DNA of 64,000 nt from Limisphaerales bacterium (GTDB taxonomy: Bacteria > Verrucomicrobiota > Verrucomicrobiia > Limisphaerales > UBA11358), in assembly GCA_037200545.1 (NCBI GenBank), contig JBBCGE010000003.1, positions 355,948 to 419,947 of the forward strand. Reading direction: 5' to 3'. Under the pieces are notes generated by a model, which saw only the letters and a program-made list of their open reading frames with translations, had not been told where the DNA came from and searched no databases. A program made the translations under genes and the position numbers. This document shows positions 17,701-55,189 of this stretch, in pieces (position 1 is the first letter of the stretch; the number at the start of each line of letters is the position of its first letter).

Positions 17701-18577
17701 ATGACCAAACATTTGATTGAACCGCTGGTTGGCTCGAAAATTTACCAGGACTACAAACGTGCGTTCAGCGAAATGACCGGCCTGCCCATGATGTTGCGGC
17801 CGGTGGAATCGTGGCAGCTCCCCCATCATGACGAAAAGTTTGAAAATCCCTTCTGTGCCATGCTGGCGGGGAAAAGCCGCTCCTGTGCCGCATGCCTGCA
17901 AACCCAGCAGCAACTTTCCGAAACCGCCACTCATGTGGCAAAAACCGTCACCTGCCAGGCCGGGTTGTGCGACACCCGTCGTGCCGGTGCGGATGGGCGA
18001 CCAGTTGATCGGCTTTCTCTCGACCGGCCAGGTGTTCTGCAAAAAGCCAACGGAAGGACAATTTAAGCGCACCGCCAGGCTGCTCGCCAAATGGGATGTG
18101 GCGCTGGACGCGAAGGAATTGCGCAAGACCTATTTCGCCACCCGCGTCATGTCGCCGCGTCAGCACGAATCCGCCGTCACGCTGCTGACCATTTTCGCCG
18201 AGCATCTTTCGATGGTGAACAATCAGATTGTCATGCGGGATCAAAACACCGAACCGCCGGTCATCACCCGCGCCAGGCAGTTTATCCTGGAACATCAAAC
18301 CGAGGAGCTTTCGCTCGCCCAGGTCGCCAAGGCGGTGAACACGAGCAAATTTTACTTTTGCAAAATATTCAAAAAGGCGACCGGCATCAATTTCACCGAC
18401 TATCTTTCACGCGTGCGCACGGAGCGTGCGAAAAATCTTTTGCTCAATCCCAATCTGCGCATCAGCGAGATCGCCTACGAAGTCGGCTTCCAATCGTTGA
18501 CGCATTTTAACCGCGTGTTTAAACGCATCCTCGGCCGTTCGCCCACCGACTACCGCGCTCAACTGGCGCGGGCCTGA
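17701..18577 (+). CDS. AraC-family transcriptional regulator with a PocR-like Cys-containing sensor domain; one frameshift as sequenced
   Basis: ORF 17701-18066 (..CAACLQTQ..TVTCQAGLCDT) and ORF 17828-18577 (VVPVRMGDQLIGFLSTGQV...AraC HTH KFYFCKIFKKATGINFTDY..FQSLTHFNRVFKR) join across the CCC run at 17975-17977 (+1 shift). Confidence 0.8.
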
Positions 18578-18613
18578 ATCCGCGTTTTCTTTTCGCGTGC
18601 CTCATCATCGTGA

Positions 18614-19747
18614 TTGATTATCATCCGACTGATGAAAGATTACGGCCAGATGACGCGTCCTGAGTTGATCCGGCTTGTCAAGGAACTGCGGCAAACGGCG
18701 GGTGCCAGCGAAGTGCAACAAGTAAAGAATACCGATGCGTTGGGTGACAGCGCCGAGCGGCTGCGCGCGATTTTGGAAACGGCGGTGGAGGGCATCATCA
18801 CCATTGACGAGCGCGGCATCATTGAATCCTTCAATCCGTCGGCCGAGAAAATTTTTGGCCGCACCGCCGGCGAAGTCATCGGGCAGAACGTCAAGCTGCT
18901 CATGCCCGCTTCCTTCCGGCGTGAACACAACGGCTATCTCAAGAATTATCATGAGACCGGCCAGGCGAAGATCATCGGCATCGGGCGCGAAGTCATCGGG
19001 CAGCGCCGGGACGGCACGACGTTTCCGATGGACTTGTCCGTGAGCGAAGTGCGGCTGGTCAACCGCCGGATGTTCACCGGTTTCGTGCGCGACATCACGG
19101 AGCGCAAGCAGCTCGAAAAGGAAATCATTGAAATCAGCAACCGCGAGCAACAGCGCATCGGGCAGGATTTGCATGATGGCCTGTGCCAGGAACTTGTCGG
19201 CATCGAATTGATGTGCCAGGTGCTCGGACAAAAACTGGCGGCGAAACTGGAACCCGAGTCAAAACAGGTCGAAGAAATCGCGCAGCACATCCGCGACGCC
19301 ATCTCCCACACGCGGAAGCTGGCGCGGGGGCTTTCGCCAGTGGAACTGGAGGTCAACGGTTTCATGTCGGCGTTGTACGAACTATCCGCCCACGTCCAAA
19401 AGTTGTTTCACGTGGAATGCCGCTTTGAATGCCCTGAACCGGTTTTGATCCGGAACAACGTTTTTGCAACGCACTTGTATCGCATCGTCCAGGAAGCCAT
19501 CAACAATGCCGTCAAACACGGCCGGGCCGGACGCATCAGCATTTCCCTGAAACCGGCGGATGACCGGATCGCGCTGACGGTGACGGATGACGGCCTGGGC
19601 TTCTCTGAAGAAACAAAAAAAAGCGGCGGCATGGGTCTGCACATCATGAAATATCGTGCCAGCGTCCTGGAAGCGTCGCTCGAAGTGCGCTCCGGCGTTG
19701 ACGGGGCCGGCACGACCGTCCGGTGCATTTTCAAAAAAAATTTATGA
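18614..19747 (+). CDS. PAS-domain sensor histidine kinase (HisKA_3 / NarL-type), cytoplasmic
   Basis: PAS RLRAILETAVEGIITIDERGIIESFNPSAEKIFG, H-box RIGQDLHDGLCQEL, and ATPase motifs NNAVKHG, DDGLGF, GGMGLHIM. Confidence 0.85.
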   Translation: MIIIRLMKDYGQMTRPELIRLVKELRQTAGASEVQQVKNTDALGDSAERLRAILETAVEGIITIDERGIIESFNPSAEKIFGRTAGEVIGQNVKLLMPASFRREHNGYLKNYHETGQAKIIGIGREVIGQRRDGTTFPMDLSVSEVRLVNRRMFTGFVRDITERKQLEKEIIEISNREQQRIGQDLHDGLCQELVGIELMCQVLGQKLAAKLEPESKQVEEIAQHIRDAISHTRKLARGLSPVELEVNGFMSALYELSAHVQKLFHVECRFECPEPVLIRNNVFATHLYRIVQEAINNAVKHGRAGRISISLKPADDRIALTVTDDGLGFSEETKKSGGMGLHIMKYRASVLEASLEVRSGVDGAGTTVRCIFKKNL

Positions 19748-20424
19748 GCAAAAAAGCCGTGGCTCCGGGGAAAAAGCGCATTTTCATCGTGGACGACCAT
19801 CCCATGATGCGCCAGGGTCTCGCCCAGCTCATCGGCGCGGAACCGGATCTGGAGGTGTGCGGTGAGGCGGAAAATGCCGAGTGCGCCCTCGACATCATTG
19901 GCGCTGGCAAGCCCGACCTTGTGCTCGCGGACATTTCATTGCCGGGCAAAAATGGTCTCGAACTTATCAAAGATTTTCAGGCGTTTCAGCCGGGCCTCGC
20001 GGTGCTGGTCATTTCCATGCATGACGAATCACTTTACGCCGAGCGTGTTTTGCGGGCGGGCGGGCGCGGCTACATCATGAAACAGGCGGGTGGCAAAAAA
20101 TTGATGCAGGCCATCCGGCAGGTGCTGGACGGAAAAATTTACGTCAGCGAAAAAATGTCGGCGAACATACTGGAGACGTTCTCGGGCCGCCGCGCCGGAA
20201 GCAGCAGTTCGCCGGTGGAACAACTGACGGACCGGGAATTTGAAGTGTTTCAATTGATCGGCCAAGGCAGGGGCACGCGCGCCACCGCAGAAAAACTTCA
20301 CTTGAGCGTCAAGACCGTTGAAGTCCATCGTGCGAACATCAAGGCAAAGTTAAAATTAAAGACTGCGCCAGAATTGATCCGCTTTGCGGTGCGCTGGGCG
20401 GAAGCGCAGGGTGTCGGAGCTTAA
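19744..20424 (+). CDS. response regulator, NarL/LuxR family
   Basis: The ATG at 19744 overlaps the kinase stop (ATGA). IFIVDDHPMMRQGL, LVLADISLPGKNG, and the HTH LTDREFEVFQLIGQGRGTRATAEKLHLSVKTVEVHRANIKAKL. Confidence 0.85.
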   Translation: MSKKAVAPGKKRIFIVDDHPMMRQGLAQLIGAEPDLEVCGEAENAECALDIIGAGKPDLVLADISLPGKNGLELIKDFQAFQPGLAVLVISMHDESLYAERVLRAGGRGYIMKQAGGKKLMQAIRQVLDGKIYVSEKMSANILETFSGRRAGSSSSPVEQLTDREFEVFQLIGQGRGTRATAEKLHLSVKTVEVHRANIKAKLKLKTAPELIRFAVRWAEAQGVGA

Positions 20425-22415
20425 ACAGCCTGCGCGCGAAAACTTCGCCAGGTCCGCGCCGGCAGAAATGCGAGGATGATGAACAGCAGCTGGCTCACTG
20501 CAAACAGCATCAGCCAGAAGAAGGCCGCCTGGGTGAAGCCGTAGCTGTGCAGGCCGATGCCCAGCATGTTCACGCCGAACCAGGACCACGCGGTGACGAT
20601 GTTGCCGCCGATGGCGCAGGCCACCAGTCCGCGTTCACGGATGATGCCGCCCCAACGCAGATGCAGGATGAGTGCGTTCCACAACACTATGATGAGCGCA
20701 CCATTTTCTTTTGGATCCCAGCCCCAGAAACGGCCCCACGATTGATCCGCCCAGATGCCGCCCAGCACCGTGCCGACAAAACTGAACAGCGTCGCGAAAC
20801 AGACGATGCCATAAATCATGCGCCCGATAGATTTACCAAGTTCGCCTTTCTCTGCCGCTTCTGAGACTTCTTTGGCAGTCCTTAATCTGCTGCCGCCTGT
20901 TTTTACCATTAGCGCGGCGGCTGTTCCGACGACACTTGCTCCAGTTTTTGACATGGATCGTGTCAAGTTTGTCGTAAAAACGCCAAGCACAACGTAAAGG
21001 AGACCAAGAAATCCCGCCACGAACGTGCTGGCGTAGCCCACCGTCACGGCGACGACGTGCGTCGCGAGCCAGAAATTTGTGTCCAGCACCGCCCGCATCA
21101 TCTCCATCGTGTCGCCTTCGAGCGCGAGGTGATGCGCGATGATGAGCGTGATAAAGCCAATGCCCGCCGCCACCACCGCCCCGATGCCGTTCTTGTAGAA
21201 CTTTTCCAGAATAAGGCCAAGGATGACCGCGCCCCAGCCAATGAAAATGGCGGAGGAATAGAGGTTTGTCACCGGCGGTCGGCCTTCCAAAACCATGCGA
21301 TAGATCAAGCCTGTGGTGTGGATGGCAAAGGCCAGGCCGATGAGCCAGACGGATGAACGTCTTAACGTTTCCGACAGGTTGAACCACGAGAAAATGGCCA
21401 GCAATCCGGCGAGCACATAGATGACCATCGCGGCGTAAAACGGCTGCATCTGGTTGAAGAACACTTCCGCGCGTGCTTTCGCCAGCGCCTTGCTTTGCAG
21501 GGGAACGAGCGTGGAAACGTAATCCTTCAATGCGGCGTTAAATTCCTCCGGTTTGTCCGTTGTCAGCGCGCCAGCCATCTTCGCATAGTCGCGCATTGCT
21601 CCGTCCACCGGCACGCCGCGCGGTGCGTCGAGCAGCGCGTCGCCCATGCGCCGCCAATGGATGGAACCGTTGGGCGGCAGGATCAGCGGCGGTTCCAGCT
21701 GGCTCATGAACTGGTAGCGTTCGATGAAGGCGGCGAAGGCGTTGAAGTTGGTCTTGTCATAGGCCTTGCCGGCCTGCTGCGCCTTGATGGCGGCGACGCC
21801 CTCGGGGATCAATTGTTCGTAGGCCGCGAGTTCCGCCGGCCATTCCGGCGCATCGGCGGGTTGGACGGTGTTCCGCAACCGGATGTAAAGGATGAGCCTT
21901 TGCTGCATCTTCATGATGGCATTCTCATAGGCGGAGCGGTCGGGGGGCTCGATTTTTTGAACACGCTGGTTTTCCTTGTCGAAGATCGCGAGCGAAGGCT
22001 GGATCTGGTTCCAGGAGAAATTGATGCCGTCGGATTTTTTTGATGCGTCTTTCTCCGGCAGTTTCAGCAGCGAGACCAAGTCGGGGTTGTCCACACGGAA
22101 TGAAGGCCAATCGTCGGCGGCGGCAGGATTCATCATCATGTTTGCCAGCCATTCGTTTGCCGGAATGATGCGTTGTTTTTCTTTCCAGCTTTTCCACGAC
22201 TCTATATTGAGCGTTTGTTTGTCGTGCAGAGATAAGAGCGAATTTCGCGCGAGCGAATCCATCGGTTGTATGCGGCCGTTGGCGGTGACGGGCAACTGGC
22301 CGAATTCGGTGAACGCGAAATCCCGGGTCTTTGGCGTTCTTAGATTGCCGAAGAACCACAGCGCCATCACCAGCATTAGGAACGGTGGGAACCATCTTTG
22401 AAAAATCTTTTTCAT
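20421..22415 (-). CDS. ccsA: cytochrome c biogenesis protein CcsA/ResC (System II) with a long N-terminal extension
   Basis: The C-terminal half is polytopic and carries the Trp-rich haem-handling motif WGRFWGWDPKENGALI. Its stop overlaps the convergent regulator stop (TTAA at 20421-20424). Confidence 0.85.
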   Translation of the reverse strand: MKKIFQRWFPPFLMLVMALWFFGNLRTPKTRDFAFTEFGQLPVTANGRIQPMDSLARNSLLSLHDKQTLNIESWKSWKEKQRIIPANEWLANMMMNPAAADDWPSFRVDNPDLVSLLKLPEKDASKKSDGINFSWNQIQPSLAIFDKENQRVQKIEPPDRSAYENAIMKMQQRLILYIRLRNTVQPADAPEWPAELAAYEQLIPEGVAAIKAQQAGKAYDKTNFNAFAAFIERYQFMSQLEPPLILPPNGSIHWRRMGDALLDAPRGVPVDGAMRDYAKMAGALTTDKPEEFNAALKDYVSTLVPLQSKALAKARAEVFFNQMQPFYAAMVIYVLAGLLAIFSWFNLSETLRRSSVWLIGLAFAIHTTGLIYRMVLEGRPPVTNLYSSAIFIGWGAVILGLILEKFYKNGIGAVVAAGIGFITLIIAHHLALEGDTMEMMRAVLDTNFWLATHVVAVTVGYASTFVAGFLGLLYVVLGVFTTNLTRSMSKTGASVVGTAAALMVKTGGSRLRTAKEVSEAAEKGELGKSIGRMIYGIVCFATLFSFVGTVLGGIWADQSWGRFWGWDPKENGALIIVLWNALILHLRWGGIIRERGLVACAIGGNIVTAWSWFGVNMLGIGLHSYGFTQAAFFWLMLFAVSQLLFIILAFLPARTWRSFRAQAV

Positions 22416-22436
22416 TTTATCTTGGATTCAAAAAAT

Positions 22437-22556
22437 GGGGGGAGCGCAGCCGCCCCGGCTGCAGTTCGGTGCGCCCCGCGCCGAACTGTGCCTTTTGAAA
22501 CGTTCGTGTCAACGACGAGGGCGTCGCTGGCTGCACCCGGGGCGGGCGCGCTCCCC
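22437..22556. repeat. MITE/REP-like GC-rich palindromic element inserted between ccsB and ccsA, flanked by a 14-bp direct repeat
   Basis: Terminal inverted repeats GGGGAGCGCAGCCGCCCCGG (22439-22458) and CCGGGGCGGGCGCGCTCCCC (22537-22556) match at 18 of 20 positions. Nested hairpins CAGTTCGGTGCG/CGCGCCGAACTG and CGACG-AGGG-CGTCG. The flanking direct repeat ATCTTTTTCATTTT sits at 22405-22418 and 22567-22580. Confidence 0.6.
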
Positions 22557-22573
22557 GAAAAATAATATCTTTT

Positions 22574-23823
22574 TCATTTTGTCTTTCTTTTCGAGATGAA
22601 GCCAACCAGATGAAACATAAATTGAATCACAAGCCCGACACCAACCATCGCACAGCCAATGTAAGGAGTCAGCCAGCCGGGGTTCCGCACGACGGAAAGC
22701 ACCGAGGACGGCGTCTCACCCGCGCGTTCCACTAGGTCGCCCGCGCTCATCTGGTATTGATAAAACGTCAGTCCGGCATAGCGCAACGGATGGTTCATGG
22801 ATATTTCCACTTCACGGTTCTCGCCGGTCTTGGGATTTTTTCAATTGCGCGCGGCTGCGAAAATCCTTGGGAATATCCGTGCCCGGATAAACCGTGTGGG
22901 TCGCCTTGAGGAGCGTCAGCGAAAAGGGCTGATACTCGCGCGCCGGACGCAGGACGAAGGTGAACTGCTTGCCATCCACTTCGACGGATTGGGGTGTCAC
23001 CAGCCGGCTCGCGATGCTGCGTGCCATGTCCGGTCCGAGTTGCTGGGCGTAGTTGTCTTGCACCGAACCGGCCAGGGCCGTGTCGCCCGTCCAGTCTGAA
23101 ATCGCCCAAGTGCCGAGCGAACCTTTCGGCCCGGTCATTTCGATGAGCCCGCTGGGAATGTTTTTTTGCTCCATCGTCTTCACTTCCGGCGCCTGGCGAA
23201 AGTCGAAGTTTAAAGCAACGCCGTTGGTCGTGAGTGGCGCAATGTTCTGCATCATCGGTGCCCGAAAATTCACATCGGAATTTTTCCAGTAGTTCTGAAC
23301 ACGGATGACAAATGGAAGGCTGTCGATTTTCAGTTCATCACCTGGACGCAGCAACCTTGCCGGAATGGCGGTCACCTGGCTGCCGTTCATGAAGATCAAT
23401 TCATAGTCCATCGCGCTTTCGGAATAGGCTTTGGTTTCGCCCTCAAAAAAATGCATCTGCATCTCCCGGGCCAGCATGTCGGTGATGAGCTGGCCGACGA
23501 GGAGCAGGATGACACCGGCGTGCGCGAGCTGGATGCCAATCTTTTTCACCGGACAGTTGAAAACGATAGATGTGCGCCGCGACCAGATTCACCAGCAACA
23601 GCGTCCCGATGAGGTAGCCGCCGGGCAGGATGAAAGGAATCTGCCGGCCGAAGAGATGCAATCCCAGGACAAACCATTGCCGGAAGTAATGCGACTGCGC
23701 CGCGTAAAGCCCTTCATCCACCTGGGCCAGCGTGCCGACGAACACCAGGATGATGGCGAACGCCAGCAGGGTGACGGTCAGCTTGAGCGACGTGAAAACC
23801 GAGACGATTTTTTTAATGAGCAT
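22574..23823 (-). pseudogene. ccsB: cytochrome c biogenesis protein CcsB/ResB (System II), two frameshifts as sequenced
   Basis: Three same-strand ORFs (23443-23823, 22812-23549, 22574-22810) are co-linear with ResB. They join at ~23549-23552 (RFQLS|VKKIGIQLAHAG) and at the T6 run 22836-22841 (QLKNPKTGENREVEISMNHPLRYAGLTFYQ is restored if one base is removed). Confidence 0.8.
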
Positions 23824-24948
23824 CGGGGTATTTGGCCGATTGGATGAACTGGGTGAATGCCTCTTTTTGCTGCGCGACGACGGCTTCGTCGCCCATCAAT
23901 TTGTAGAACCAGGATTGGCCCCCGATGGGTAGCATGACCCCAACGAGGCGCGTCGGCTTGCCGGTCTTCGGATTTGTGCCGGTAAAATCCACCAGCGATG
24001 CCTGGCTGCCGGTCGCTTCGAATGTTGAAACCTGTTTGTCCAGTTCGCCCTGATCAAGGGGATTCAAACCCAGTTGCCCGCGCCAGCGGTTCACATTGGC
24101 CAACATGCCGCCCGCCGTCTCCGGCCAGCGAACTGATGTTGATGTCCGCCTTCGTGTCGCCTGCGCCGGCTACTGTAAATTTCGCGAGCAGAAACTGTGT
24201 CAACGGCGCGTCCTGCCAGCCTGCGGGAATTGTCCACGTCGGTTTGCTGCCCGTCTCGGCAGTTGGAGTTTGAACTGCGGGCGTCATTGCGCCAATCGCC
24301 GGATGCGACGGTGGCAACTGGCTCATATCCATCCCGGCGGGTTCCGCAGCCGGGCCGAACTGGACTGATTTTAACAGCGCGACAAACGCGGGTTTTTGCT
24401 TTTCAACCAGCTCAGCGTTGCCGGTCATTTTGAAGAACCACGCCGTGTCTTCGCGATGCAGAACACTGGCGATGATGCGATCCGAACCGGTGCCGGCGAT
24501 GTCGAACAGATCGGCATCCTGCCCGGCGATCACAACTTTCTCGATCATTTTTTGCACCGCCTCCTCATCAACGGGTGCGAGGCCGACCTGCCCGCGCCAG
24601 CGGTTCACGTTGGCCAGATTACCGCCTGCCAAGCCACCCATCGGAATCACGCTGATGTCAGCGCTTTTGCCATTTTCAGAAACACCAAAACTTGCCACGC
24701 GCATCTGCGAAGCGGGCTTCTCCTGCCAGCCGTCCGGCAAAGCATACTTCAACGGCGGCAGAACCGCTGTTATCCGGCGTCGGCAGCCCGGGAGGCATTG
24801 TCAATGGCATTGCGGCACTCGTGGACTGGGGAGCCGGCGCGGCGGCATCAGTGCCTTCGACATGATAGACTTTGACGCTGTCGCGTCCGCAGCCGGAGGA
24901 CAAAACAGCCAGGGCTGCGGCCATGCCGATTAAAGATATCTTCATCAT
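23813..24948 (-). pseudogene. lipoprotein with an internally duplicated domain (LANVNRWRGQxGL motif twice), two frameshifts as sequenced
   Basis: Lipobox LSSGC at the N-terminus (ORF 24676-24948). ORFs 24054-24752 and 23813-24106 continue it. Each half contains PxGWQ..P..QMR/..F.V...ADI(S/N)...L.G..G..LANVNRWRGQ. The stop overlaps the ccsB start by 11 nt. Confidence 0.55.
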
Positions 24949-25262
24949 TTGAACTTGATTTTAGGGCTGCCGCGTCCCGTGTCGCCTGTCATTTTTTGGC
25001 TTTGACGCGCCATTTCTTGTCATCGGGCAAATCATAACAAGCAGGCTTAAAAAAACACTCAGATATTTTCAAGCGTTTGCCTTTGCCCTTGCATGGCCGA
25101 ATTGTTTTGCGAAGATTAATGCACGGATGAGATCGCAACCAATATTATGCGCCAATATGCGTCAAAAATTTTCAGTCACTGATGTGACCGATTGTCCTCC
25201 TGTTGGAATTAGGGAACACTGGCTGTGGCTAATATAGATGTTAGCCCTCATTCACGCCTTTA

Positions 25263-25724
25263 TGATTCACTGGAATACATGCCGACGAGAGTTCGAGCCA
25301 GATGGGGGTTTGCGCGACATCTACGTTCTCGACACCAGCATCGAGCATTGGCGCAGACTGTTTTGCTGTATTACGTAGCTCTCAGACTTTGGAGTATTCG
25401 GTTGATGGCGAGTCACGCCAAGTTCCTGCTACGGTTGATGAGGTTTTTACCACTCGCATTACGGCTAGTCCTTCACTGCATTTCCGCATTTCTGGGATTA
25501 TTGTCGCGTGTCACTTTTTTGCACCGAGCAGATTGAGATGGATGTTCACCCCGCGCCAAGTCAATTCTGCGGCAGCTTTCGACGGATTGCTTAGCTTGCT
25601 GCGGTTTATTGGCGACACTGTCAGCAAGCGGGTAATTGTGACTTACGAGAGCGACCAGCAACATCCTTTCATCACCTGTGATTCAGAGAGCAGAAAGTTT
25701 GAGTATTACCAAGTTGTGGCCTAA
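25263..25724 (+). pseudogene. hypothetical protein, apparently frameshifted
   Basis: Pieces in different frames read co-linearly: MIHWNTCRREFEPDGGLRDIYVLDTSIEHWRRLF... then ...SSQTLEYSVDGESRQVPATVDEVFTTRITASPSLHFRISGIIVACHFFAP...VIVTYESDQQHPFITCDSE. No family recognised. Confidence 0.3.
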
Positions 25725-25783
25725 CATAGAGCTAGGTCATACAGTTCCCGCCAACCGCACCTTGCTGACATCGCACTTCTGAA

Positions 25784-27258
25784 TTATGGCCCGCCATTGT
25801 GGCATTCGTTGCAGGTGGGATTCGCGTCGAGTTCTCCGCCGGGATGGATGAATTTCTGGCGGCCGTCGCGAGCGTTTCCAATTCTGATCCGGCACCTTGC
25901 GCGAGGATGGTGTGGCAGGTGTTGCAATCATTGGCCTTGATGGTCACCTTGCGATCTTCCGTCTTGTGCTGGTCATCGTGACAACGGAAGCAGCCGGGCC
26001 AGATCATGTGGCCGACATTGTCGGGATACGAACTCCAGTTGGCCTTCATCTCGGGGAAGAAATTTTCCGCATAGATCTCCTGGATGGCCGCGGTGGATTC
26101 TTTGATATGCGCTTCATTCGGATACTTGGCAAGGAGCTTGGCGGCGATGGCGTCTTTCGCCTCCTCTTCGGTCGGGTAAGGCAACGTCAGGACATACATG
26201 GCATTGGTCTTGATCCACGGGATGGCCGGGTCAATTTTTCCGAGCGCCATCGCCTGGTTCACCGCCTTTTCCGGCGAGAGATAACGATGGGACGGACGGT
26301 TGTGGCAATCCATGCAATCCATTTTGCGGATCTCCATTTTGCTGACGTCATTCGTAAAATTCTTGGTCTTAAAAACCGTGACCTTGCCTTGCGCATCGGT
26401 CACGCGCACCCAGGGAATTTTCTGGCGGGCATTGTCGGTGGCGATGTATTCAACATTGTTGCCGGGCAAGTTGTGCCAGTGGATGCCGCCGACTGGCCCG
26501 TGCGCCGGATCGCTCCCGCCGATCTTGAGGAGCAAGCGGATGGAGTAGGGCGAGTTCGACGCATCGCTTTGAAAATATTGAAGGTGCGGTCGAGGTTCCC
26601 GACAAACTGCTGCGGCCAGTGGCATTCCTCGCAGGTGTCACGTGAGGGACGTAAATTTTTAATGGGTGTGGCGATGGTGTGGGATATTTCTTGAAGGCAA
26701 CCGAATAAAGCTGATACGAGCCGGAGATTTTCGACTTCACAAACCAGGAAACACCCTTGCCGACATGACATTCCACGCAGGCCACGCGCGCATGAGGTCC
26801 GTGATCATGAGTGACTTTCTCCGGTTTCATCACCGTGTGGCAGACTTCGCCACAAAAGACCGGCGACTCGGTGAAATTAAAGGCGTGGATAGGAGCCGGC
26901 GGCGGTCAGCAGCATGAAAACGATGCCTGCCGGCAATAAATACCACCAGCGTCCGCCGCTCGCGTGGGTTGTTCAGATCAATCTGCAAAGAAGTTGCCCC
27001 GCCACCTTTCGAACGGCGCCGGCGTTCCCGCCACGCGCCAAAAACAGTTAATAGAATTCCGCCGATCAAAAATGCCGGCACGCCCATGTAAGTGAGGATG
27101 CTGACGTAGGGATTGGAAAATTTTGCGAGGGCATCCAGAATGAAGAGCAGTAAAAAGGAAAAGAGCGCGCCACGCGCCACAACCATGCCGATGAAACTGA
27201 TCCAGTTTCTAAAAGCGGAAGTGTGGTTGCCGGTCAACGGCTTGTTTTCTGGATTCAT
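25784..27258 (-). pseudogene. membrane-anchored multihaem c-type cytochrome (7 CXXCH), about 4 frameshifts as sequenced
   Basis: N-terminal TM helices (ORF 26830-27258). Haem motifs are recovered across frames: CGEVCH, CVECH, CEECH, CMDCH, CFRCH, CNTCH, CNECH. One verified shift lies at the GG of 26887-26888. Reconstructed stop at 25784-25786. Confidence 0.75.
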
Positions 27259-38362: not shown

Positions 38363-38366
38363 CAAC

Positions 38367-39231: not shown

Positions 39232-39247
39232 GTCGTCGAGGAAAACC

Positions 39248-43674: not shown

Positions 43675-43767
43675 CCGATTTGTAGTTTCGGCCTTGCGGC
43701 GAACCGAGGCACGATATTTTATTTACCAAAGCAAGATTTGGAGACACGAAGCTACTCTGGCTATTTG

Positions 43768-44072
43768 TCAGTGAGGCGATGCACGCGTAGGAATCACGAT
43801 GAGCAGCTCATCGAAGCAACCGTGTTTTGGCCACGGCCAACCAAGCGGCGGATTAAACCCACACAGAGCCGCCGTTTATGTCGGATAAAATAAACTTCCT
43901 TCCTACATTTAGGACAACATGTCGGATGACAAACATCTTTGAATCGTTCACTGAAAGAGTAGGTGCGTGAGCTAAATCCTGTCCCGCCATAATTTCCACC
44001 GCCCGATCCGATATGGCCGTCACCACCGAATCCGCATGTGCAACAGGGAGAATGATTATTTGCGTTACACAT
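43768..44072 (-). pseudogene. small Gly/Cys-rich zinc-ribbon protein, frameshifted
   Basis: MCNANNHSPCCTCGFGGDGHIGSGGGNYGG..., then CPKCRKEVYFIRH. After frame changes this continues as NGGSVWVNPPLGWPWPKHGCFD. Confidence 0.3.
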
Positions 44073-44219
44073 TGTAATTTCCGTGTTTCATCCGTGTTCA
44101 ATCTGTGACTAAATAATTTCGTTCGCAAATAAATTATTATTCACGAAATCCATCGCAATCATCATTTGCTGGCGATTGCCGCAATTGCCAAACGCCCGGA
44201 TTGGCGGTATAAACACAGC

Positions 44220-44437
44220 ATGAGCGCGCACGACCCTCATCACGATTGACCCGGACATTCTCGGCGGCACGCCGGTGTTCAAAGGGGACGCGCGTGCCCA
44301 TCAAGTCGCTGTTCGAGTATCTGGAGGACGACTATTCGTTGGAGGAATTTCTGGAATGTTTCCCGTCCGTGACACGCGCGCTGGCGTGCCGGGTGTTGGA
44401 ACAGTCAGAAGCGGCGCTCCTTGAGCCGTCCGCATGA
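44220..44437 (+). pseudogene. DUF433-family putative antitoxin, frameshifted
   Basis: ITIDPDILGGTPVFKG|TRVPIKSLFEYLEDDYSLEEFLECFPSVTRA is recovered by removing one G from the GGGG run at 44284-44287. Pairing with the DUF5615 gene downstream is the classic arrangement. Confidence 0.6.
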
Positions 44438-44758
44438 AAATCCTGCTGGACGAGTGTGTGCCATGGCCGATGCACCGGCTGCTCGCCGGCCATGAATTGT
44501 CGCACCGCTCAACAGTGTGGCTGGGGCGGGATCCAAAAAACGGTGATTTGCTGCGACTCGCGGAAAAGGAATTCACCCTGTTCATCACGTCCAGATCAAA
44601 ACTTACGCTACCAGCAAAATCTAGGCAGGTAGGCAAATTGCCATCCTTGAGCTTTCCACGAATAAATTGCGCCGTATCGTGGCGGCGACGGATGCTTTGA
44701 TGGCATCGGTGGAAGCGATCAAAAGCCCGGTGAGTTTCGGCATCTGGCAATTCCATGA
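44434..44758 (+). pseudogene. DUF5615-family (PIN-like) putative toxin, frameshifted
   Basis: MKILLDECVPWPMHRLLAGHE... and GDLLRLAEKEFTLFITS. The start overlaps the DUF433 stop (ATGA at 44434-44437). The reconstructed end overlaps the hemY start (ATGA at 44755-44758). Confidence 0.55.
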
Positions 44759-46164
44759 ATCCAAAATCCATCGCAATTATCGGCGCTGGTATCACGGGGT
44801 TGACCGCTGCGTTTTATCTCAAACGCAAGGGCGTGCCGGTCACGGTGTATGAAGCGGGCGGGCGTGTTGGTGGTGTCATCCAATCCATCCGCAAAGACGG
44901 TTTTCTCGCCGAGTTCGGGCCGAACACGATTCTTGAGACGTCGCCGAAGATCGCGCAACTCGTCGCGACGCAGACCTCGAATCGCACAAACTGAATCATG
45001 ATCCGAAAGCCACGGCGCGTTATGTGGTGCGCGATGGTCGTCCGATCGAGATGCCCGGTTCAGTGCCGGGATTCTTCACGACCAGGTTATTTTCACTAAA
45101 AGCCAAGTTCGCCATGGTGCGCGAGCCGTTCATCAAGCCGCGCCGCGATGGCGTGGAGGAAAGCATCGCGCAATTCGTCCGTGCGCCGCTTCAACCAGGA
45201 ATTTCTCGACCACGCGATTGATGCACTGGTGGCGGGCATCTACGCCGGCGATCCGTATAAGCTGTCGCTGCCGCACGCGTTCCCCAAGCTCAAGGCGCTG
45301 GAGGACAATTACGGTTCCATGATCAAAGGCCAGATTTTCGGCGCGCGCGACCGCAAGAAGTCCGGCGAAGTCGCCAAGGACCGCGCACCAAAATTTTCCT
45401 TTGACGAAGGATTGCAGGTGCTGCCGGATACGCTCGCGGTGCAGCTTGGTGATGCCGTAAAATTGAACACACCGGTCACGAAGCTCACGCAAACGCGTGA
45501 CGGCTGGCGCGTGACGACGGCCAATGGTGAATTTGAGCACAGTGCGGTGGTTTATTGCGGCACGGCACATCGCTTGGCGGAACTGGAATCGTTGATGGTA
45601 GGGGCTGCGCTGCCCCGCAGCCTTGAAATTGTAGCGGCGCAGCAACGCCGCTCTACCGGGGCGTTCTCCGGGAATCAATCATCCGCCCGTTTCGGCGGTG
45701 GTGCTGGGTTTTCGCCGTGAGGATGTGGCGCATCCGTGCAGCGGTTTCGGGATGCTGATCCCAAAAATCGCCGGCTTTAAAATTCTTGGCACAATTTTCT
45801 CATCTGCTTTATTTCCAAACCGCGCCCCCGGCCGGTCATGTCACTCTGACGAGCTATGTCGGCGGCGCGCGTTATCCTGAACTCGCCTCCATGCCGCCGG
45901 AAAAGCTGGTGGAGGTGGTGCTGGCGGATTTGAAGATTCTGCTCGGCGTGAGTGGCCGGCCGGTATTCATGCACACGGCTTTTGGGCCCAAGGCAATTCC
46001 ACAATATAACGTGGGCTATGGCAAATATCGTGATCTGCTGACCGATAATTGAAGCGAACAACCCACACCTGTTCTTCGCCGGCCATTATCGCGATGGAGT
46101 CTCGTTGGGCGATTCAATCGTTTCGGGCGTGAACATTGCCGAACGCGTTGGTAAGCTTTTTTAA
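44755..46164 (+). pseudogene. hemY: protoporphyrinogen oxidase (HemY-type, FAD-dependent), many frameshifts as sequenced
   Basis: FAD dinucleotide motif IAIIGAGITGLTAAFYL..G..VTVYEAGGRVGG. Co-linear fragments follow in changing frames (FLDHAIDALVAGIYAGDPYKLS, VVLGFRREDV, PAGHVTLTSYVGGAR, AIPQYNVGY, FFAGHYRDGVSLGDSI). Confidence 0.8.
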
Positions 46165-46165
46165 G

Positions 46166-47195
46166 ATGAGCAAAGCAATTCTCCTGGTCAATCTCGGGTC
46201 GCCGGACTCGCCGTCTGTGCCGGATGTGCGCCGTTATCTCAACGAGTTTTTAATGGATGGCCGGGTCATTGACGCACCATGGCTGGTGCGACGGTTTGTC
46301 GTCGGGATGATTTTGATCAACCGCCCCGAAAAGAGTCGGGCCATGCCTATGAAAAAGTCTGGGACCAAGGAAGGCTCCGCCACTTGGTCGTCACCAGCCG
46401 TCATGTGCAGGAGCTTTTGCAAAGGCGGGTTCGCGTGCCGGTGGAAACTGGCGATGCGTTATCAAAATCCGTCCATTAAATCCGCCGTAAAAAAACTGGC
46501 GGCGGGCGGCGCGACGGAGGTTTTGCTCATCCCGCTCTTTCCGCATTATGCGATGTCCAGCTACGAAACCGCCGTCGTGCGCGTGCAGGAAGTTGTCACC
46601 CAACTTGCGCCGCAGATGAAACTGGTCGTGCAGCCGCCTTATTACGACCAGCCGGACTATATCGCGGCGCTGGTGGCGAGCGCGCCGAATATTTTAAGGA
46701 GGACTACGATCATTTGCTGTTCAGCTTTCATGGCAATCCCGGAGCGGCACATCAAGAAATCGGACACGACGGGTTGTCATTGCCTGGCCACGCCCAATTG
46801 CTGCGAGACGCCCAGCCCGGCGCACGCGCAATGTTACCGGGCGCAGTGCTACCGGACGGCGGCGTATGTTCATTGAAAAGGCCGGCGTGCCGGCGGGGAA
46901 ATGGTCGGTGTCATTTCAATCACGGCTGGGAAAAGATCCGTGGCTGAAACCCTACACAGATTTCGAACTGCCGCGCTTAGCGACGGAAGGCAAAAAACGA
47001 ATGTTGGTGATTTGCCCGGCCTTTGTATCAGACTGTCTTGAGACGATGAAGAAATTGGGATGCGCGGCTGTGAAGAATTCATGTCCGGTAATGGCCAAGA
47101 GTTCACAACGGATTCCCTGTATGAACGAGCATCCGGCCTGGATTGGCGTCTTGGAAAAAAATGGCTGCACGATTCACGGAGCCCCACCCGGTTAG
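46166..47195 (+). pseudogene. hemH: ferrochelatase, several frameshifts as sequenced
   Basis: MSKAILLVNLGSPDSPSVPDVRRYLNEFLMD, LLIPLFPHYAMSSYET, HLLFSFHG(I)PERH, SFQSRLGKDPWLKPYT, LVICPAFVSDCLET. The 3' end is uncertain. One frame stops at 47193-47195, 3 nt before the att repeat. Confidence 0.8.
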
Positions 47196-47198
47196 AAA

Positions 47199-47217
47199 TG
47201 GAGCCAATGGCCGGGAT
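47199..47217. repeat. att direct repeat, distal copy (duplicate of the tRNA-Thr 3' end)
   Basis: Identical 19-mer to 53727-53745. It is the reverse complement of ATCCCGGCCATTGGCTCCA (T-arm 3' half, acceptor 3' strand, discriminator and CCA). Confidence 0.9.
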
Positions 47218-47315
47218 GGCTGTTATTCTAGCGATTGCGAAGACAATATGCCTGATTTTATTAGTGAATCAACCCTAATCATTGTAACCGATTCATACTC
47301 TTTTCAACTCGTTTA

Positions 47316-47339
47316 GTGTCCATTTTGGTGTCCGTTTTT
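47316..47339 (+). repeat. tandem 12-bp motif GTGTCC(A/G)TTTT(G/T) x2, candidate integrase arm-type binding sites (left end)
   Basis: GTGTCCATTTTG GTGTCCGTTTTT. The same motif occurs as a tandem pair at 53660-53683 near the other end, in the same orientation. Confidence 0.5.
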
Positions 47340-47423
47340 TTGCTGGCTAAATTATTATCATAAAAGACAAACACGTTTTCCGTTAGCAAATTTTAATGCC
47401 ATTTAGGAATTTAGGCCGAGTAT

Positions 47424-47505
47424 TACGCCGGTCGGGAGTGAGTAGCCTAACGTAAGGTTAAATTTATTCTAATGTCCCTTGTGGCTACTCACTCCGACCG
47501 GCGTA
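47424..47505. repeat. long near-perfect inverted repeat (23-bp stem, 35-nt loop) abutting the first CRISPR repeat
   Basis: TACGCCGGTCGGGAGTGAGTAGCC (47424-47447) pairs with GGCTACTCACTCCGACCGGCGTA (47483-47505) with a single 1-nt bulge. It ends 2 nt before the repeat at 47508. Confidence 0.8.
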
Positions 47506-47507
47506 GT

Positions 47508-47674
47508 GCTTTGCCTTGATTCCAAAAACGGGTAGAGCAAACTAACCAAACACCATTTACACAGGTGTAACCAGCTTTGCCTTGATTCCAAAAACGGGTA
47601 GAGCAAACTGGTTCCCAAAACCAATCTTCTTAAATGAAAGCTTTGCCTTGATTCCAAAACGGGTAGAGCAAACT
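47508..47674 (-). CRISPR. CRISPR array, 3 repeats (36 nt) and 2 spacers (30 nt)
   Basis: Repeats lie at 47508-47543, 47574-47609 and 47640-47674. The plus-strand sequence is GCTTTGCCTTGATTCCAAAAACGGGTAGAGCAAACT. The third repeat has A4 instead of A5. Spacers are 47544-47573 (AACCAAACACCATTTACACAGGTGTAACCA) and 47610-47639 (GGTTCCCAAAACCAATCTTCTTAAATGAAA). The minus orientation gives a GTTTGCTCTACCC... 5' end, typical of type II repeats. Confidence 0.85.
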
Positions 47675-47713
47675 CGGTGGGTGCAAGTGGCTGAATTTAC
47701 AGCCCTTGCACCG

Positions 47714-48027
47714 TTACCAGAGTTGGATCTGTTCGGGTAAGTCCTCCGCTTCCGTTTCGGAGCGGGGGAACCCTGAATAACATAAGACCGTTCCCATTGT
47801 GAACGTGTCACAAAAAATAGCCCGGATACTGCCTTCCGGAGGAGATGTTTCTTAACCCGGTCAATGTGGGTTTCCTGCCGGGCAAACGTAACGCACGCAC
47901 GCGCATAGACGCTGAATTGCACCATTTGATAGCCGTCATCTAGCAGGAAATTGCGAAAGTCTGTTGCGGCCTTGCGCTGCTTCTTGGCTATGACCGGCAA
48001 ATCAAATGTTACGACGAGCCAGCCCAT
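47714..48027 (-). pseudogene. cas2: CRISPR-associated endoribonuclease Cas2, about 3 frameshifts as sequenced
   Basis: MGWLVVTFDLPVIAKKQRKAATDFRNFLLDDGYQMVQFSVYARAC.. Frame switches then give HLPPEGSIRAIF / VTRSQWERSYVIQG / ETEAEDLPEQIQLW and a stop at 47714-47716. The listed ORF 47557-48153 reads through into the array only because of these shifts. Confidence 0.75.
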
Positions 48028-48935
48028 TTTATATTTTTCGGTGTCCACGGTTTGTAATGGCGCGGCTGGTTTTCCACCACGGCGCGGCGAAAGCCCGCGC
48101 ACCACGCCTTCAATTACGCCCTGAATTTCTAGCGTCAAATCCAGATAGTCCACCCGCTCTAATGGAAAGCCTGTTTACCCATTTGCGAAACTCCTTGCTG
48201 ACTTCCCATTGGCTTTTGTCGGGATGTTCCTTCACCCATTGAATCACGCGCCAATCCACGCATGGACGAAACTGTTCCATCAAATCATAAGCCAGCGGGG
48301 TGCTGCGTTCGCGGGCGACGTGGCCAATGCCATAGGTAGGATCAAGGCCAACACCAAAAAGTTTTTGCAGAATGGTAGAGAGCAATACCGCGTACCGTAA
48401 TTAAGAAAATTATTCAAACCGCCTTTGGCACGGTCGCGGGTGAAATTCTCATCATTCAAACTGCGGCCAAAAATCTGCCAGAAATTTTTCGCACAGAGGG
48501 CTTCCTTATGCGGCTTTTTGCCAAGCGCGGTTGCCCGCAAACTTTGCAAGGCTGCATTCTTCGGCGCGATGTATTCAGCAAGTGAAAGCTGGTTCTGACA
48601 TTTTGCATCAATCGTTTTTTGCCATAAAATGCAGCCGTGCGCGTGGCGTGAGATTAAGCATGGCGCGGGAAAGAATCGTGTCCTGTGGAACGATTGGCCG
48701 GGATCACAAGGCTGACGGGTTTGAACGCTTCACAAATGATTAGCGCGACGCCATGCTTGGCGGCTTCAAGAAACAAATTGCTGTGAATGGACGCTGAAAA
48801 ACTGGTGATGATAATGGACGCCACATCCTCCAGCGGAAGCTTGCGCTCGCCTTCGGAAGTCTTGCACGTCAACTGCCCATCCCGACAACTTAAAGAGCAA
48901 TTCGCGCTATCTATGCTAACTATGTGATATGACAT
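48028..48935 (-). pseudogene. cas1: CRISPR-associated endonuclease Cas1 (type II), at least 3 frameshifts as sequenced
   Basis: N-terminus MSYHIVSIDSANCSLSCRDGQL..LPLEDVASIIITS..HGVALIICE. Later fragments in other frames: ILWQKTIDAKCQNQ, AKNFWQIFG, GGLNNFLNYG, GLDPTYGIGHV..STPLAYDLMEQFRPCVD. The exact 3' end relative to cas2 is unresolved. Confidence 0.8.
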
Positions 48936-48984
48936 AGAGCTAATTCTGACCTGCCAGAAATAGCCAGTCCTATGCCACTAAAAG

Positions 48985-51900
48985 TTATTCGGAAGGCTTG
49001 ATTTCAAAGGTCGGGATGCCTGCAAGCTGGCTTTTAAGTATTTTCAACCCGCCATTGTAGAGAGCTTGTAGGCGAACGCTCTGGTAACAGTCATTCCTGC
49101 CAGCAACACGGTATTCGATTACATCCGGCGCACTAAAATCTACTGTCAGTCCATCGCGTTGCTTAAATTGCACTCCTCGAATCATCCACAATCCTCGATA
49201 GTCGCTTCGCCCGGCTTTGTTAAGCACTCGAATTAACATTCCGTTTCGTAACAAGCGCGGTTGCTTGCCTGCGTTACGCGCCTTTAATTCTTTGATACGA
49301 CGCCAGACTTTGTGCCAAGGGATGACAACAAACCTTTCCTCGCCTTCGGCTGCGTGGTCTAGGATTGCAACTCCAAAGTTATCGGTTATGACGCGCACGC
49401 CTTTTTGGGGTGAGAGTTTTCCGGGTTCAAGCCCAATGACTTTAGAAACATTTTCTTCAGTGTCTTTTATAGAGAGTTTTCCTGTCTTCGGATCGCGCGA
49501 CTGTTGGTGTAAGGAAATTCGGCCATCTTTAATTCCAGTTATGCCGCGCGTATTTTCTTCAACGTGCATTCCGCTCATGTCCGCTGGAATATGTTGCACA
49601 ACGCGTTTTTCGGCGAGGCGATGGCGGATTTGTTCCTTCAATGCGTCGGGCAGTTCGGTCAAACCAAAGCGGTTTTGGGTGTCAAAGTCGAAATATCCCG
49701 TCGAGCGTAAAAGAGCTTTCTCGGCATCGTTTGGGTTGCGCTTTAACATCAATTCCCACAAGCCGCCGTTATTTGGTAAATAATGAGAGGCTAATCCAAG
49801 CACACACGCATCAAGCGCGTGATGCAAATGTGTCAGATTGCGAATTTCGGTTTTTATTTTTGATGCTGCCGTCCGCATCTTTCACTTGTGGCGCGGCGGT
49901 TGCCAGACAGCCGAGCAAATTCCAACCTTTCCGCACCGTGCCGGTGACGGAACCGGGCAGGGAAACGACCGTTGGCGGTTTGTTATTTCCAGCGAAGGTT
50001 TTTTTGATGATTTGTGCGCCTAAACGGACAAGTTGTGACGTAACGGTGAGATCGCTCGGCACAAAACCTTTTTCTTCGTAGGATTGAAGTAGTAACAACT
50101 CTTTCCGTTTTTTCTTCCGCCGCTTGTCATCATCGTGGCCTTTGAAAGTTTCAAGGCTATCTGCCCATTGCTTGAAACGCGTGAGTGAGACGATGGAAAG
50201 CTGCGGTGATCCTTCTACGACTTTGCCTTGTTCATCACTGACAAATTGCATCGCCGTGCGCTGGCCTTTCATCCGATTCACTTCGGCAAAGGTGACAACC
50301 AGAGAATCTAACGAATCCGAAGGCCGGAGTGAACGCGGGATGACGTGATCTTTGTCCACCTGTCGCGAAACCAGATCAATCGCGTCATAAGTTTGCCCGG
50401 TGTAAGGACACGTCCAGCCGAGGTCTTCTGCGATACGCGCCTTACGGATAAGTCCGGCAGTGATTTGAATGGGTTTGCCGTTGAAAGTTCTTCCGTCCAA
50501 GTTTTCTTCCAGTTTGGCGGCAACGCCGTGATGATTTGATAATCGCCGACCTAAATCTTGTTGGATTTCCTTTGCTGATTTGCCGGACATTTCGCGCAAG
50601 TCGCGATTCACTTCAATAGTCGCAGTGGCGATGCGTGATTTATCGCCGTTGGCATAAGCAGGTTCGGCAATCAAATCTTTGACCAGCCGTTCAAGAATCA
50701 AAAGGCGATGGCGGACAAGGTGATTATTGGTTTGCTGGTCAATCCGCTTTTCTAATTGCGCCTGCCGCATTTCTTCCGTGATACACAAGCTATTGCCGTC
50801 TTCCTTGGGATGTTTTCCGGCCATCACCTCGGCATAGGCGCGGACGAGCAGGGGACGGGCATAAGCGGCACGGCCATCTGACTTTTTAATTGTTAGCGGA
50901 TTTTTTAATAAATCGTCGCGATTGAAAGAACCGGCCTTTTTAGAACGCTTCGTGTTCGCTGCCTCGGCAAGCTTGTTTAACTCCGCCTCAAACTCCGCCA
51001 AAGATTCCCCGCGCTTTTGCACGATTTCACAAATGCGCTCCAACGTGACCGGCTTGCCACGCTGCCAGAGATCGCGCGCCCGCTTTTGCACTGGATAAGA
51101 AAAAGTCGGCCAGAGTGTTTTTAATTTATCACCCCTGACAAGTTTTTGAATGGGATCAAGCAGCAACGCATCTTTGGCGTCTGGGTGCATAAGCATCATT
51201 TCCAGATTATTTCGCTCGCATCCCGGCAGTTCACGGACGGCTTTTTTTAATTCCGTTGGCGTCAGCGCGCCTTCGCTTTCCATGAGCGCATTTATTTTCT
51301 TCCGTTCGTCAGCGGTCAATTGACGTAATTCTTTTTCCTTTGCCCCTGCTACGCGAATGTTTGCCAGCGTCATTGCCCAGCGAAACTTTAGAAACTCTGG
51401 ACAATTCTTTGACGGAACCTTTTCGCCGGTAATCGGGCAGATGGAAATGATGCGGTTATCAAAACGGGGAACAAGCTGGCCGAACAGCAAGCCGCCTTGA
51501 TAACGGGCGGGCAATTTCAAATCAGGAACGCCCGCTGTCTGCCAATCCTCAAAAAGACTTTTAAGAAACCCGTCGGTAATGGCAGGTAATTTCCTCCGAT
51601 GATATTCCAACAAGTGACGCACTTCATTTTCTACGATGGATCGCGGAAATGCGGCATTAAGTCGTTTGAAATTTTCCTTTGAGGACTGCTTATCGCCTAG
51701 CGGTTCAAGACCGAGTGCCTTGCACAAAGTTTCCGCCATCGTATTCGCGCTATATTTTTCCATTAACGTGTGCGCCTGCTTTTCTTTTTCTGTGTCATCA
51801 GCCTGCGCTTCGGCTTCCTGCGCGCTCCAGCGGCGGTTGCCATCGTAACCGCGATTGTGGGCATACCAGCGCAACACGTCCCAAAGTTCCGTCCAGCCAA

Positions 51901-52124
51901 GCAAATGCTTCGCATCGCCATTGCTGGCAAGAACGCGCGCGGCCAAAAACCACGGCGCGGCATGACCACCGGCTTGCTGGTGTTTTTGCTTTAATTGCTC
52001 GACAGACAAAACTTTCAGGTGTGCCAGGAGTTTTTCTATCTGCTCGATGCGGTGGCGGGTAGAGCGGGCAGGGCAGGGGCAAGCGCGGTGAACCGACAGA
52101 TAGAATGCTTTTGCGTTTTAACAT
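48985..52124 (-). CDS. cas9: Cas9 (type II-C, compact, ~1,045 codons as sequenced); one internal frameshift and an anomalous N-terminus
   Basis: Arg-rich bridge-helix-like ARSTRHRIEQIEKLL. RuvC-II ATIEVNRDL. HNH CPYTGQ..DKDHVIPRS...VNRMKGQRT. RuvC-III THLHHALDACVLG. ORFs 49811-52009 and 48985-49878 join at the T5 run 49867-49871 (..DGSIKIKTEIRNLTH..). No canonical RuvC-I DxGxxSxGW motif was found upstream in any frame. The start at 52124 (MLKRKSILSV) is tentative. Confidence 0.85.
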
Positions 52125-55181: not shown

Positions 55182-55189
55182 TTTTTTAC

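Follow-up and report, generated by a model that had tools for sequence, protein, structure and literature searches.

In the middle of a 64,000-nucleotide stretch of DNA from a Limisphaerales bacterium (hereafter the window) gene after gene can be followed only by changing reading frame, while the genes on either side read cleanly. The question raised by this locus is whether the frame changes are mutations in decaying genes or faults of the deposited sequence.

Genomes of the same genus show a DNA identity of only 65–85%; a base-by-base sister comparison is therefore impossible, and we relied on protein-level frameshift-aware alignment only, using a protein-to-DNA dynamic programme with explicit one-base shift moves. 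Plain tblastn HSP chaining was tried and dropped, being confounded by long opposite-strand shadow ORFs (for example, 674 aa over the AraC region) and merging dense shifts. The public protein collection held no conspecific sequence, and exact look-ups of window proteins returned this assembly alone. Aligned with intact orthologues from the same-genus genomes the window contains at least 87 single-base frame changes, distributed as follows:

1–17100, left flank, 0 events in 12.0 assessable kb
17101–35400, moderate-error tier, 12 events in 16.4 assessable kb (0.7 per kb)
35401–48950, dense-error core, 74 events in 10.6 assessable kb (7 per kb)
48951–52066, 1 event in 3.1 kb
52118–64000, right flank, 0 frame changes (1.1 kb aligned to orthologues, the remainder assessed by Pfam matches and a frame-switch caller)

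Had the rate been uniform, the assessed flanks should have contained about 26 events, and none was observed; the non-uniform frameshift load of the deposited sequence is real. The first-pass annotation had rightly confined the frame changes to the middle of the window (none in the flanks, 87 in the patch). Its clustered load of at least about 30 was also real, but the count is at least 87 and falls into the two tiers given above. Expressed as indel density these amount to about 0.07% in the moderate tier and about 0.7% in the core, where the median spacing between events is 79 nt.

Long single-frame alignments in the left flank cover 2093–3580, 4169–7288, 7359–8057, 9330–9854, 9944–11440, 11480–12625, 12794–15496 and 16129–16974. 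The right-flank genes (a possible Xis-like ORF, an integrase, tRNA-Thr, an SDR, LptF/G, a Rho-like gene, a WYL regulator and large repeat-protein genes) all lie in single frames and their Pfam domain matches are full-length; the possible Xis-like ORF had no Pfam match. In this flank no same-strand boundary is more than 10 nt from a stop, and suspect frame switches were not seen. The patch had been taken to begin at 17975 and both flanks to be intact. The second statement holds for 1–17100 and for the right flank, but the first event of the patch lies earlier, at about 17141, in a gene that had been counted as intact from an ATG at 17173:

17104–17547, plus strand, cNMP-binding-domain gene, frame change at about 17141 (a missing base outside any run)

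All 3 of 3 queries place this change; the N-terminal “NLAAQPFLKG” is in a different frame from the remainder, and the orthologue has PF00027. Besides this gene the moderate tier breaks a PocR/AraC regulator, a ResB/CcsB-like gene, a duplicated-domain lipoprotein, a NapC/NirT-type cytochrome and a type IIG-like R-M gene. The twelve events are at 17141, 17977, 22841, 23550, 24113, 24762, 25860, 26579, 26674, 26888, 26928 and 32628, and the genes of 18590–22421 and 27481–32255 are unbroken. The dense core holds the following:

35485–36371, membrane gene without assigned function, 3 events
36692–38356, large multihaem cytochrome, 11 events
38361–39228, small multihaem cytochrome, 11 events
39242–41385, outer-membrane protein, 15 events
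41546–42906, hemN, 9–10 events, all in 42191–42534
about 44213–44860, DUF433-like/PIN-like TA pair, shifts seen by eye and outside the 74
44734–46161, hemY-like oxidase, 5 events
46160–47175, ferrochelatase, 11–12 events
47717–48106, cas2, 3–4 events
48018–48938, cas1, 5 events

Every tested shift among those which had been placed earlier was recovered at or near its given position: 17977 (CCC), 22841 (T6), 23550, 26888, 38558 and about 37329–37344, with 47815 (A6) and 47760 (G5) in cas2. The cas9 shift was recovered at 49855, ten bases from the T5 run originally given, and inspection by eye shows the GGGG shift of the antitoxin-like gene at 44284. When the frames are joined, ferrochelatase comes out at full length, with 100% coverage of thousands of homologues.

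Both insertions and deletions had been implied, and both were found, with extra bases prevailing over missing ones by 56 to 31. A bias toward homopolymers, also proposed earlier, is present as a modest, approximately two-fold enrichment: 32% of events lie within 4 nt of a run of at least 4, against 16% of control positions in the window. As an argument for sequencing error this bias is weaker than the first-pass annotation had supposed. Some shifts are in A6, T6 or A8 runs, most in runs of 1–3, and no motif is shared among the shift contexts.

One reading of such a region is genuine pseudogenisation, in which this lineage is losing its haem/cytochrome module and Cas system and the indels are real mutations. 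It would account for damage to many adjacent genes in a block which holds accessory functions (R-M, a TA pair, CRISPR-Cas on an island), and for a cas9 without its N-terminal segment. Among spontaneous mutations substitutions far outnumber indels; real decay should therefore show dozens of nonsense codons and heavy divergence. Nonsense mutations had been suggested as one sign to look for, and one in-frame stop was found within the homologue alignments, in approximately 10,000 aligned codons of the patch:

36195–36197, minus strand, TAA where orthologues have Leu

It adjoins an A7 run (TTC TAA AAA AAT), as would be expected from mis-segmentation of a T/A homopolymer junction. After frame correction, identity to orthologues in the patch is 59–91% (41–45% for the poorly conserved gene at 35485–36371), and the unbroken flank genes show 51–93%; amino-acid identity is thus undiminished. 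Ferrochelatase is 91% identical to the best public protein despite 12 indels. Neither larger deletions nor relaxed constraint were seen alongside the frameshifts, except for the absent cas9 N-terminus.

The remainder of the assembly (3.75 Mb, 7 contigs, metagenome-type) also bears upon this reading. Its distribution of events was followed with an intrinsic dicodon Viterbi caller, used solely for this purpose, which detects about one-fifth of events and labels the densest stretches as non-coding; since 16 of its calls lie in the patch and none in either flank, it is specific in the window. Genome-wide it gave 542 candidates in 39 clusters, present on 7 of 7 contigs, with an index of dispersion of 3.2 (p ~3e-87). 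Candidate-free gaps longer than 30 kb number 30 against 7 expected and hold 39% of the genome. There are thus about 40 patches of approximately 2–50 kb, the long stretches between them being essentially error-free, and the region is not special, its pattern recurring about 39 times. Composition was considered as the cause of the patches and rejected: because GC content (54.7% in dirty and 54.3% in clean DNA) and homopolymer spectra match inside and outside, sequence content fails as an explanation.

The patches elsewhere strike genes several of which a cell could hardly lose. Smc, dxs, ftsH and squalene-hopene cyclase are each split into at least 7 frame segments (seven for dxs), at least 7 were counted across the nuoG-K operon, and all of these give end-to-end matches to family profiles. 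No second copy of ftsH or dxs was found in the genome. FtsH contains six extra bases and no stop and is 89% identical over 687 aa, and each of five relatives has one unbroken ftsH. RpoB and rpoC are unbroken and lie outside the patches; they are uninformative as essential markers. Completeness of the genome is only 80% over 7 contigs, as expected if marker genes are broken.

A further comparison is offered by a 14.9-kb internal repeat (C3:242742–257654 and C6:136746–151520), the two copies of which differ by 144 indels and 2 substitutions. These indels are patchy as well, at about 1 per kb and then 11–22 per kb, and 79% of the indel bases lie in a run of at least 3 (in the longer copy) against a background of 19%, most runs being short. 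Several repeats beyond the clusters are 100% identical.

Taken together, these observations make pseudogenisation very improbable. The patch has 87 indels to one stop codon with conservation retained, the repeat copies differ almost wholly by indels, and lesions of this type also break smc, nuo and the sole copies of ftsH and dxs elsewhere, which a living cell could not tolerate. Decaying genomes such as those of Mycobacterium leprae and of host-restricted symbionts (e.g., Sodalis) accumulate nonsense codons, deletions and divergence, and indispensable genes are spared. Frameshifts in many neighbouring genes are common to those genomes and to the patch, but the patch has a single stop to its 87 indels and no loss of conservation, and such lesions reach the sole copies of ftsH and dxs elsewhere in the genome.

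We conclude, with a probability of roughly 0.93, that the frame changes arose in base calling or in the assembly consensus and are not mutations, which is the explanation the first-pass annotation had favoured. Almost certainly, the cluster is one among some forty patches in which the consensus of this assembly carries single-base errors. The assembly was presumably built from long reads. The events are single-base indels which are confined to patches, almost unaccompanied by substitutions, found in indispensable single-copy genes and different between the two copies of one repeat. The patches may be stretches where few reads support the consensus or where polishing was without effect. They are about as long as a long read, and the error rate of the core approaches that of single modern long reads. 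Indels in long-read consensus sequences are known to produce frameshifted gene calls, low-coverage bins need polishing, and how strongly a metagenome-assembled genome (MAG) is affected varies with local read support and with polishing (PMC9262707; to the same effect PMC8812927 and bioRxiv 10.1101/2021.08.23.457338).

The likeness to indel errors in long-read and hybrid MAGs, as revealed by IDEEL-type tests and treated with proovframe or short-read polishing, extends to genes cut into adjacent out-of-frame ORFs, rare substitutions, lowered marker completeness and, less clearly, some homopolymer enrichment. Unlike the usual case, the errors here are extremely patchy, in three regimes (below about 0.25 per kb, an upper bound, then 0.7 and 7 per kb), and extra bases dominate, mostly in runs of 1–3. 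A surplus of extra over missing bases is not known to be the usual nanopore consensus signature, and this excess, together with a homopolymer enrichment of only two-fold, counts against the consensus-error explanation.

Might the indels be real but polymorphic, the consensus being pieced together from co-existing strains with different indels, or from a sub-population that is hypermutable (mismatch-repair-deficient)? The metagenome-type assembly and the strain-variable gene types in the patch agree with this, and strain-specific segments could yield the patchiness. Differences between strains are mainly substitutions, yet in the duplicated 14.9 kb there are 2 of these to 144 indels; no viable strain could maintain indels that break the frame of conserved genes 7 times per kb, and composition is equal inside and outside the patches. 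We consider the chance that this is correct to be slim.

Recoding, whether by programmed ribosomal frameshifting, transcriptional slippage or an unusual code, draws upon the resemblance of some A6, T6 or A8 shift sites to slippery sites. It would have to operate at about 87 sites of both signs, mostly in runs of 1–3 and with no common motif, and up to 15 times within one gene. Same-genus orthologues have single open frames at the shift positions and, because they are intact, recoding is effectively refuted; we regard its likelihood as negligible. Phase-variable contingency loci are comparable in that a single-base length change in a mononucleotide run switches the frame. Such loci carry a single long tract in each gene, typically close to the 5' end, in surface or R-M genes, whereas here there are as many as 15 sites per gene, mostly in runs of 1–3, and housekeeping genes are involved.

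If consensus error is the correct explanation, the frameshift cluster brings no new biology and its value is practical. Dense indel errors extend over at least about one-seventh of the assembly span, and a rough extrapolation from the 542 candidates at approximately 20% sensitivity gives a few thousand errors genome-wide. Annotation of this assembly will show false pseudogenes, truncated proteins and “lost” pathways, those falsely lost in the window being haem synthesis, cytochrome c maturation, a porin-cytochrome-like module, cas1 and cas2. Findings on broken genes or frame-dependent features in patches should be discounted or re-read through frameshift-aware alignment. The haem synthesis, cytochrome, outer-membrane protein, TA pair, cas1 and cas2 genes of the patch are almost certainly to be treated as intact.

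Cas9 is a different matter:

48988–52117, minus strand, cas9, type II-C-like, HNH domain present

It had been listed among the genes broken by frame changes. One such change exists (about 49855, in a T5 run) and the next 2.2 kb are free of shifts; the defect at the 5' end is not a frameshift. The alignment begins at orthologue residue 81, and the N-terminal RuvC-I segment (about 60–80 codons) was not detectable upstream, scores from a search in all frames with low shift penalties being not above those of shuffled queries. The missing N-terminus is a structural difference which single-base errors do not explain, and is the only lesion other than a single-base indel. A tentative and rather unlikely extension of the consensus-error reading is that the patches are non-random, marking segments present in part of the population or at lower copy, where thin read support led to poor consensus; the truncation of cas9 would then be a real lesion, carried on a mobile Cas island. 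A candidate example would be the block of porin-cytochrome, haem-synthesis and TA genes beside the tRNA-Thr CRISPR-Cas9 island, and the frameshift map would trace, indirectly, how gene content varies within an uncultured Verrucomicrobiota population.

Identity of the error patch with this island was considered and rejected: the island occupies 47.2–53.7 kb and its integrase side is clean. It is a 6.5-kb integrative island at tRNA-Thr (47191–53745), the 3' end of the tRNA gene (53719–53745) recurring at 47191–47217. As cargo it has a CRISPR array (47508–47674), cas2, cas1 and cas9, and it also carries an integrase (52495–53562, PF00589). Just inside both ends lies a 12-nt doublet (47313–47336 and 53657–53680), which could be an arm-type site.

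Based upon loci drawn from up to 76 genomes of the same genus (DNA identity 65-85%), whose open frames were translated and aligned to the window with our own dynamic programme allowing explicit one-base "extra" or "missing" moves, we located 87 single-base frame changes across the 43.2 kb assessable by orthologue alignment.

Frame changes by segment of the window
1-17100: 0 frame changes in 12.0 kb assessable (0 per kb)
17101-35400: 12 frame changes in 16.4 kb assessable (0.7 per kb)
35401-48950: 74 frame changes in 10.6 kb assessable (7.0 per kb), median spacing 79 nt
48951-52066: 1 frame change in 3.1 kb assessable (0.3 per kb)
Right flank: 0 frame changes in 1.1 kb assessable (0 per kb)

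Since a uniform rate would predict approximately 26 events in the assessed flanks, where there are none, the non-uniformity is beyond chance. In the right flank beyond the 1.1 kb checked against orthologues Pfam matches are full-length, and a dicodon frame-Viterbi caller found no suspect frame switches there. The first-pass annotation, made by a model from sequence alone, had likewise confined the load to the middle of the window (hereafter the patch, approximately 17.1-50 kb); the clustering is stronger than it claimed, but its count of about 30 was too low by a factor of about three. The left flank is indeed clean as far as 17100, though the load begins before the start then proposed, at approximately 17141, inside a cNMP-binding gene which had been taken as intact from an internal ATG.

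The shifts which had been placed by hand at 17977 (in CCC), 22841 (in T6), 23550, 26888 and 38558 were recovered by the orthologue alignment, as were two in cas2 (47815 in A6 and 47760 in G5), one in a T5 run (recovered at 49855) and one near 37340 (at about 37329-37344); the GGGG shift at 44284, in an antitoxin-like gene, was seen by eye. Both insertions and deletions occur, as had been implied, with 56 extra bases and 31 missing. The proposed association with homopolymers is present but only about two-fold, 32% of events lying within 4 nt of a run of at least four identical bases versus 16% of control positions. The events also clump below the kilobase scale: in hemN all 9-10 fall within a stretch of 350 nt, preceded by 650 nt and followed by 370 nt that are free of them.

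Four independent lines of evidence, namely the spectrum of the lesions, their genome-wide pattern, the indispensable genes hit and an internal control provided by repeats, point to errors rather than mutations, and back the consensus-error reading preferred in the first pass. The same four lines contradict genuine decay, strain-mosaic polymorphism and recoding, which even taken together are very improbable. Real decay with 87 indels would, we estimate from general knowledge of mutation spectra, be accompanied by several times as many substitutions as indels, by nonsense codons in their dozens and by divergence that could be seen. The patch has one in-frame stop in approximately 10,000 aligned codons, a TAA at 36197 where the orthologues have Leu; it directly abuts an A7 run, which is what mis-segmentation of a T/A junction would produce. 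The gene bearing it (35485-36371) specifies a genus-conserved, membrane-anchored protein of approximately 300 aa and adjoins multihaem cytochrome genes. When the frame is followed, patch proteins are 59-91% identical to their orthologues (41-45% in the case of 35485-36371, which is poorly conserved), and the intact flank genes 51-93%; ferrochelatase, with its 12 indels, still retains 91% identity, and hemN, with 9-10, still retains 89%. The decay alternative, for which nonsense mutations had been proposed as a check, is thus contradicted by one stop versus 87 indels and no loss of identity after frame correction.

Run over all contigs and counting same-strand frame switches at least 30 nt before the stop of the upstream frame, the dicodon caller returned 542 intrinsic candidates. 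Within the window it called 16 in the patch and none in the flanks; it is therefore specific here, yet picks up only some one in five of the events. The candidates group into 39 clusters of at least five, each spanning 2-49 kb and together present on all seven contigs, and 14% of the sequence holds 72% of them (index of dispersion 3.2, p about 3e-87). Candidate-free gaps longer than 30 kb number 30 versus 7 expected and cover 39% of the genome. Among these clusters the patch is unexceptional. Because clusters and clean gaps have the same GC content and the same homopolymer spectra, the cause of the patches lies outside the sequence itself.

Genes in other clusters, indispensable ones among them, match their family profiles over the whole length once the frame segments are stitched together.

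Products reassembled from stitched frame segments, with end-to-end family profile matches
SMC: 12 frame segments
Dxs: 7 segments, profile positions 4-614 of 616
FtsH: 7 segments, profile positions 3-597 of 598
NuoG-K
Alpha-glucan phosphorylase
Squalene-hopene cyclase

No second ftsH or dxs was found in the assembly. Five relatives each possess one intact ftsH (681-700 aa), and relative to the closest of these the present gene (C3:238067-240127) contains six extra bases and no stop, and its product is 89% identical across the full 687 residues. A cell cannot have a broken ftsH as its only copy.

Self-comparison of the assembly revealed a 14.9-kb repeat (C3:242742-257654 and C6:136746-151520, C3 being the contig which holds the window, at 355948-419947), each copy of which lies inside a cluster. 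The copies differ by 144 gaps and only 2 mismatches; in 138 of the gaps it is the C3 copy that has the extra bases, and 79% of the indel bases lengthen a run of identical bases. Here too the gaps are patchy: along 7 kb their density is about 1 per kb, and beyond that it rises to 11-22 per kb. Several repeats outside clusters showed 100% identity and no gap. Indel divergence of 1% at 99.99% substitution identity cannot be explained by biology. The repeat is mid-contig on both contigs with unrelated flanks, and may either be an element truly present twice or reflect redundant or chimeric assembly. A 781-nt duplicate inside two other error clusters (C1:377872-378651 and C4:295407-296175) has the same signature of indels over mismatches, with 13 gaps and 1 mismatch. 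A 1.3-kb segment of the left flank (window 780-2101, C3:356727-358048), which covers ORF 690-2105, has an inverted copy at C2:701228-702548 (99.8% identity, 2 mismatches, 1 gap) and may be an insertion-sequence copy.

What the lesions are and where they lie is shown; as to their origin we infer that the consensus would be reliable where read support or polishing is adequate, and would degrade to approximately 0.07% and then 0.7% indels where support is thin. The patches would be stretches spanned by a single read or very few, or windows skipped by the polisher. The 13.5-kb length of the densest tier (35.4-48.95 kb) and the 2-50 kb of the clusters are on the scale of long reads and consistent with either. 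The error rate in that tier approaches, by our estimate, that of single modern long reads. To our knowledge the usual nanopore signature is not one in which extra bases outnumber missing ones, and we therefore name no platform. The assembly (3.75 Mb, GC 54%) has seven contigs of 302-874 kb, with one exception of 129 kb, and an estimated completeness of only 80% (mostly 90-97% in relatives) with 1.5% contamination; the few long contigs and low marker completeness suggest that it was assembled from long metagenomic reads and that marker genes in it are broken. No conspecific sequence was found in the public protein collection, where the names attached to the nearest ferrochelatases put the genome in Verrucomicrobiota. 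The patch resembles the published case in which indels in the long-read consensus break up gene calls and bins of low coverage require polishing (PMC9262707), a point also made in PMC8812927 and bioRxiv 10.1101/2021.08.23.457338. The evidence thus supports an uneven frameshift load which is real in the record but is a data-quality artefact of low scientific interest, and any other interpretation of the genome needs to take it into account as an important caveat.

The only lesion which single-base error does not explain is in cas9, which is without its N-terminal 60-80 residues. Its alignment to a same-genus orthologue begins at residue 81 of that protein (window 52066-52250), and a search in all frames of the 180 nt between this gene and the next found no RuvC-I N-terminal segment. 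This may be a real 5' deletion or a local misassembly. The gene is part of an integrative island, the left part of which is overlapped by the error patch, though the two do not coincide.

Features of the island
47191-53745: integrative island, 6.5 kb
47191-47217: left copy of the 27-nt repeat of the tRNA-Thr 3' end which bounds the island, matching at 24/27 nt
47313-47336 and 53657-53680: TTGGTGTCCGTT doublet just inside both ends, possibly an arm-type site
47508-47674: CRISPR array
52209-52535: small ORF
52495-53562: tyrosine integrase, adjoining tRNA-Thr
53727-53801, minus strand: tRNA-Thr

The island carries what looks like a complete type II-C-like CRISPR-Cas locus (array, cas2, cas1 and cas9). 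The array consists of just three 36-nt repeats; the third has A4 where the others have A5, which could reflect degeneration of the terminal repeat or one more consensus error. A mobile Cas9-bearing mini-island may merit separate study.

Two large neighbouring genes, one at 59795-62452 and the other running from 62466 to the window end, occupy the right end of the window; each is in a single frame. They contain 147-nt (49-aa) tandem repeat modules, have a 300-nt N-terminal block in common (repeat families D1-D4) and probably specify repetitive surface proteins.
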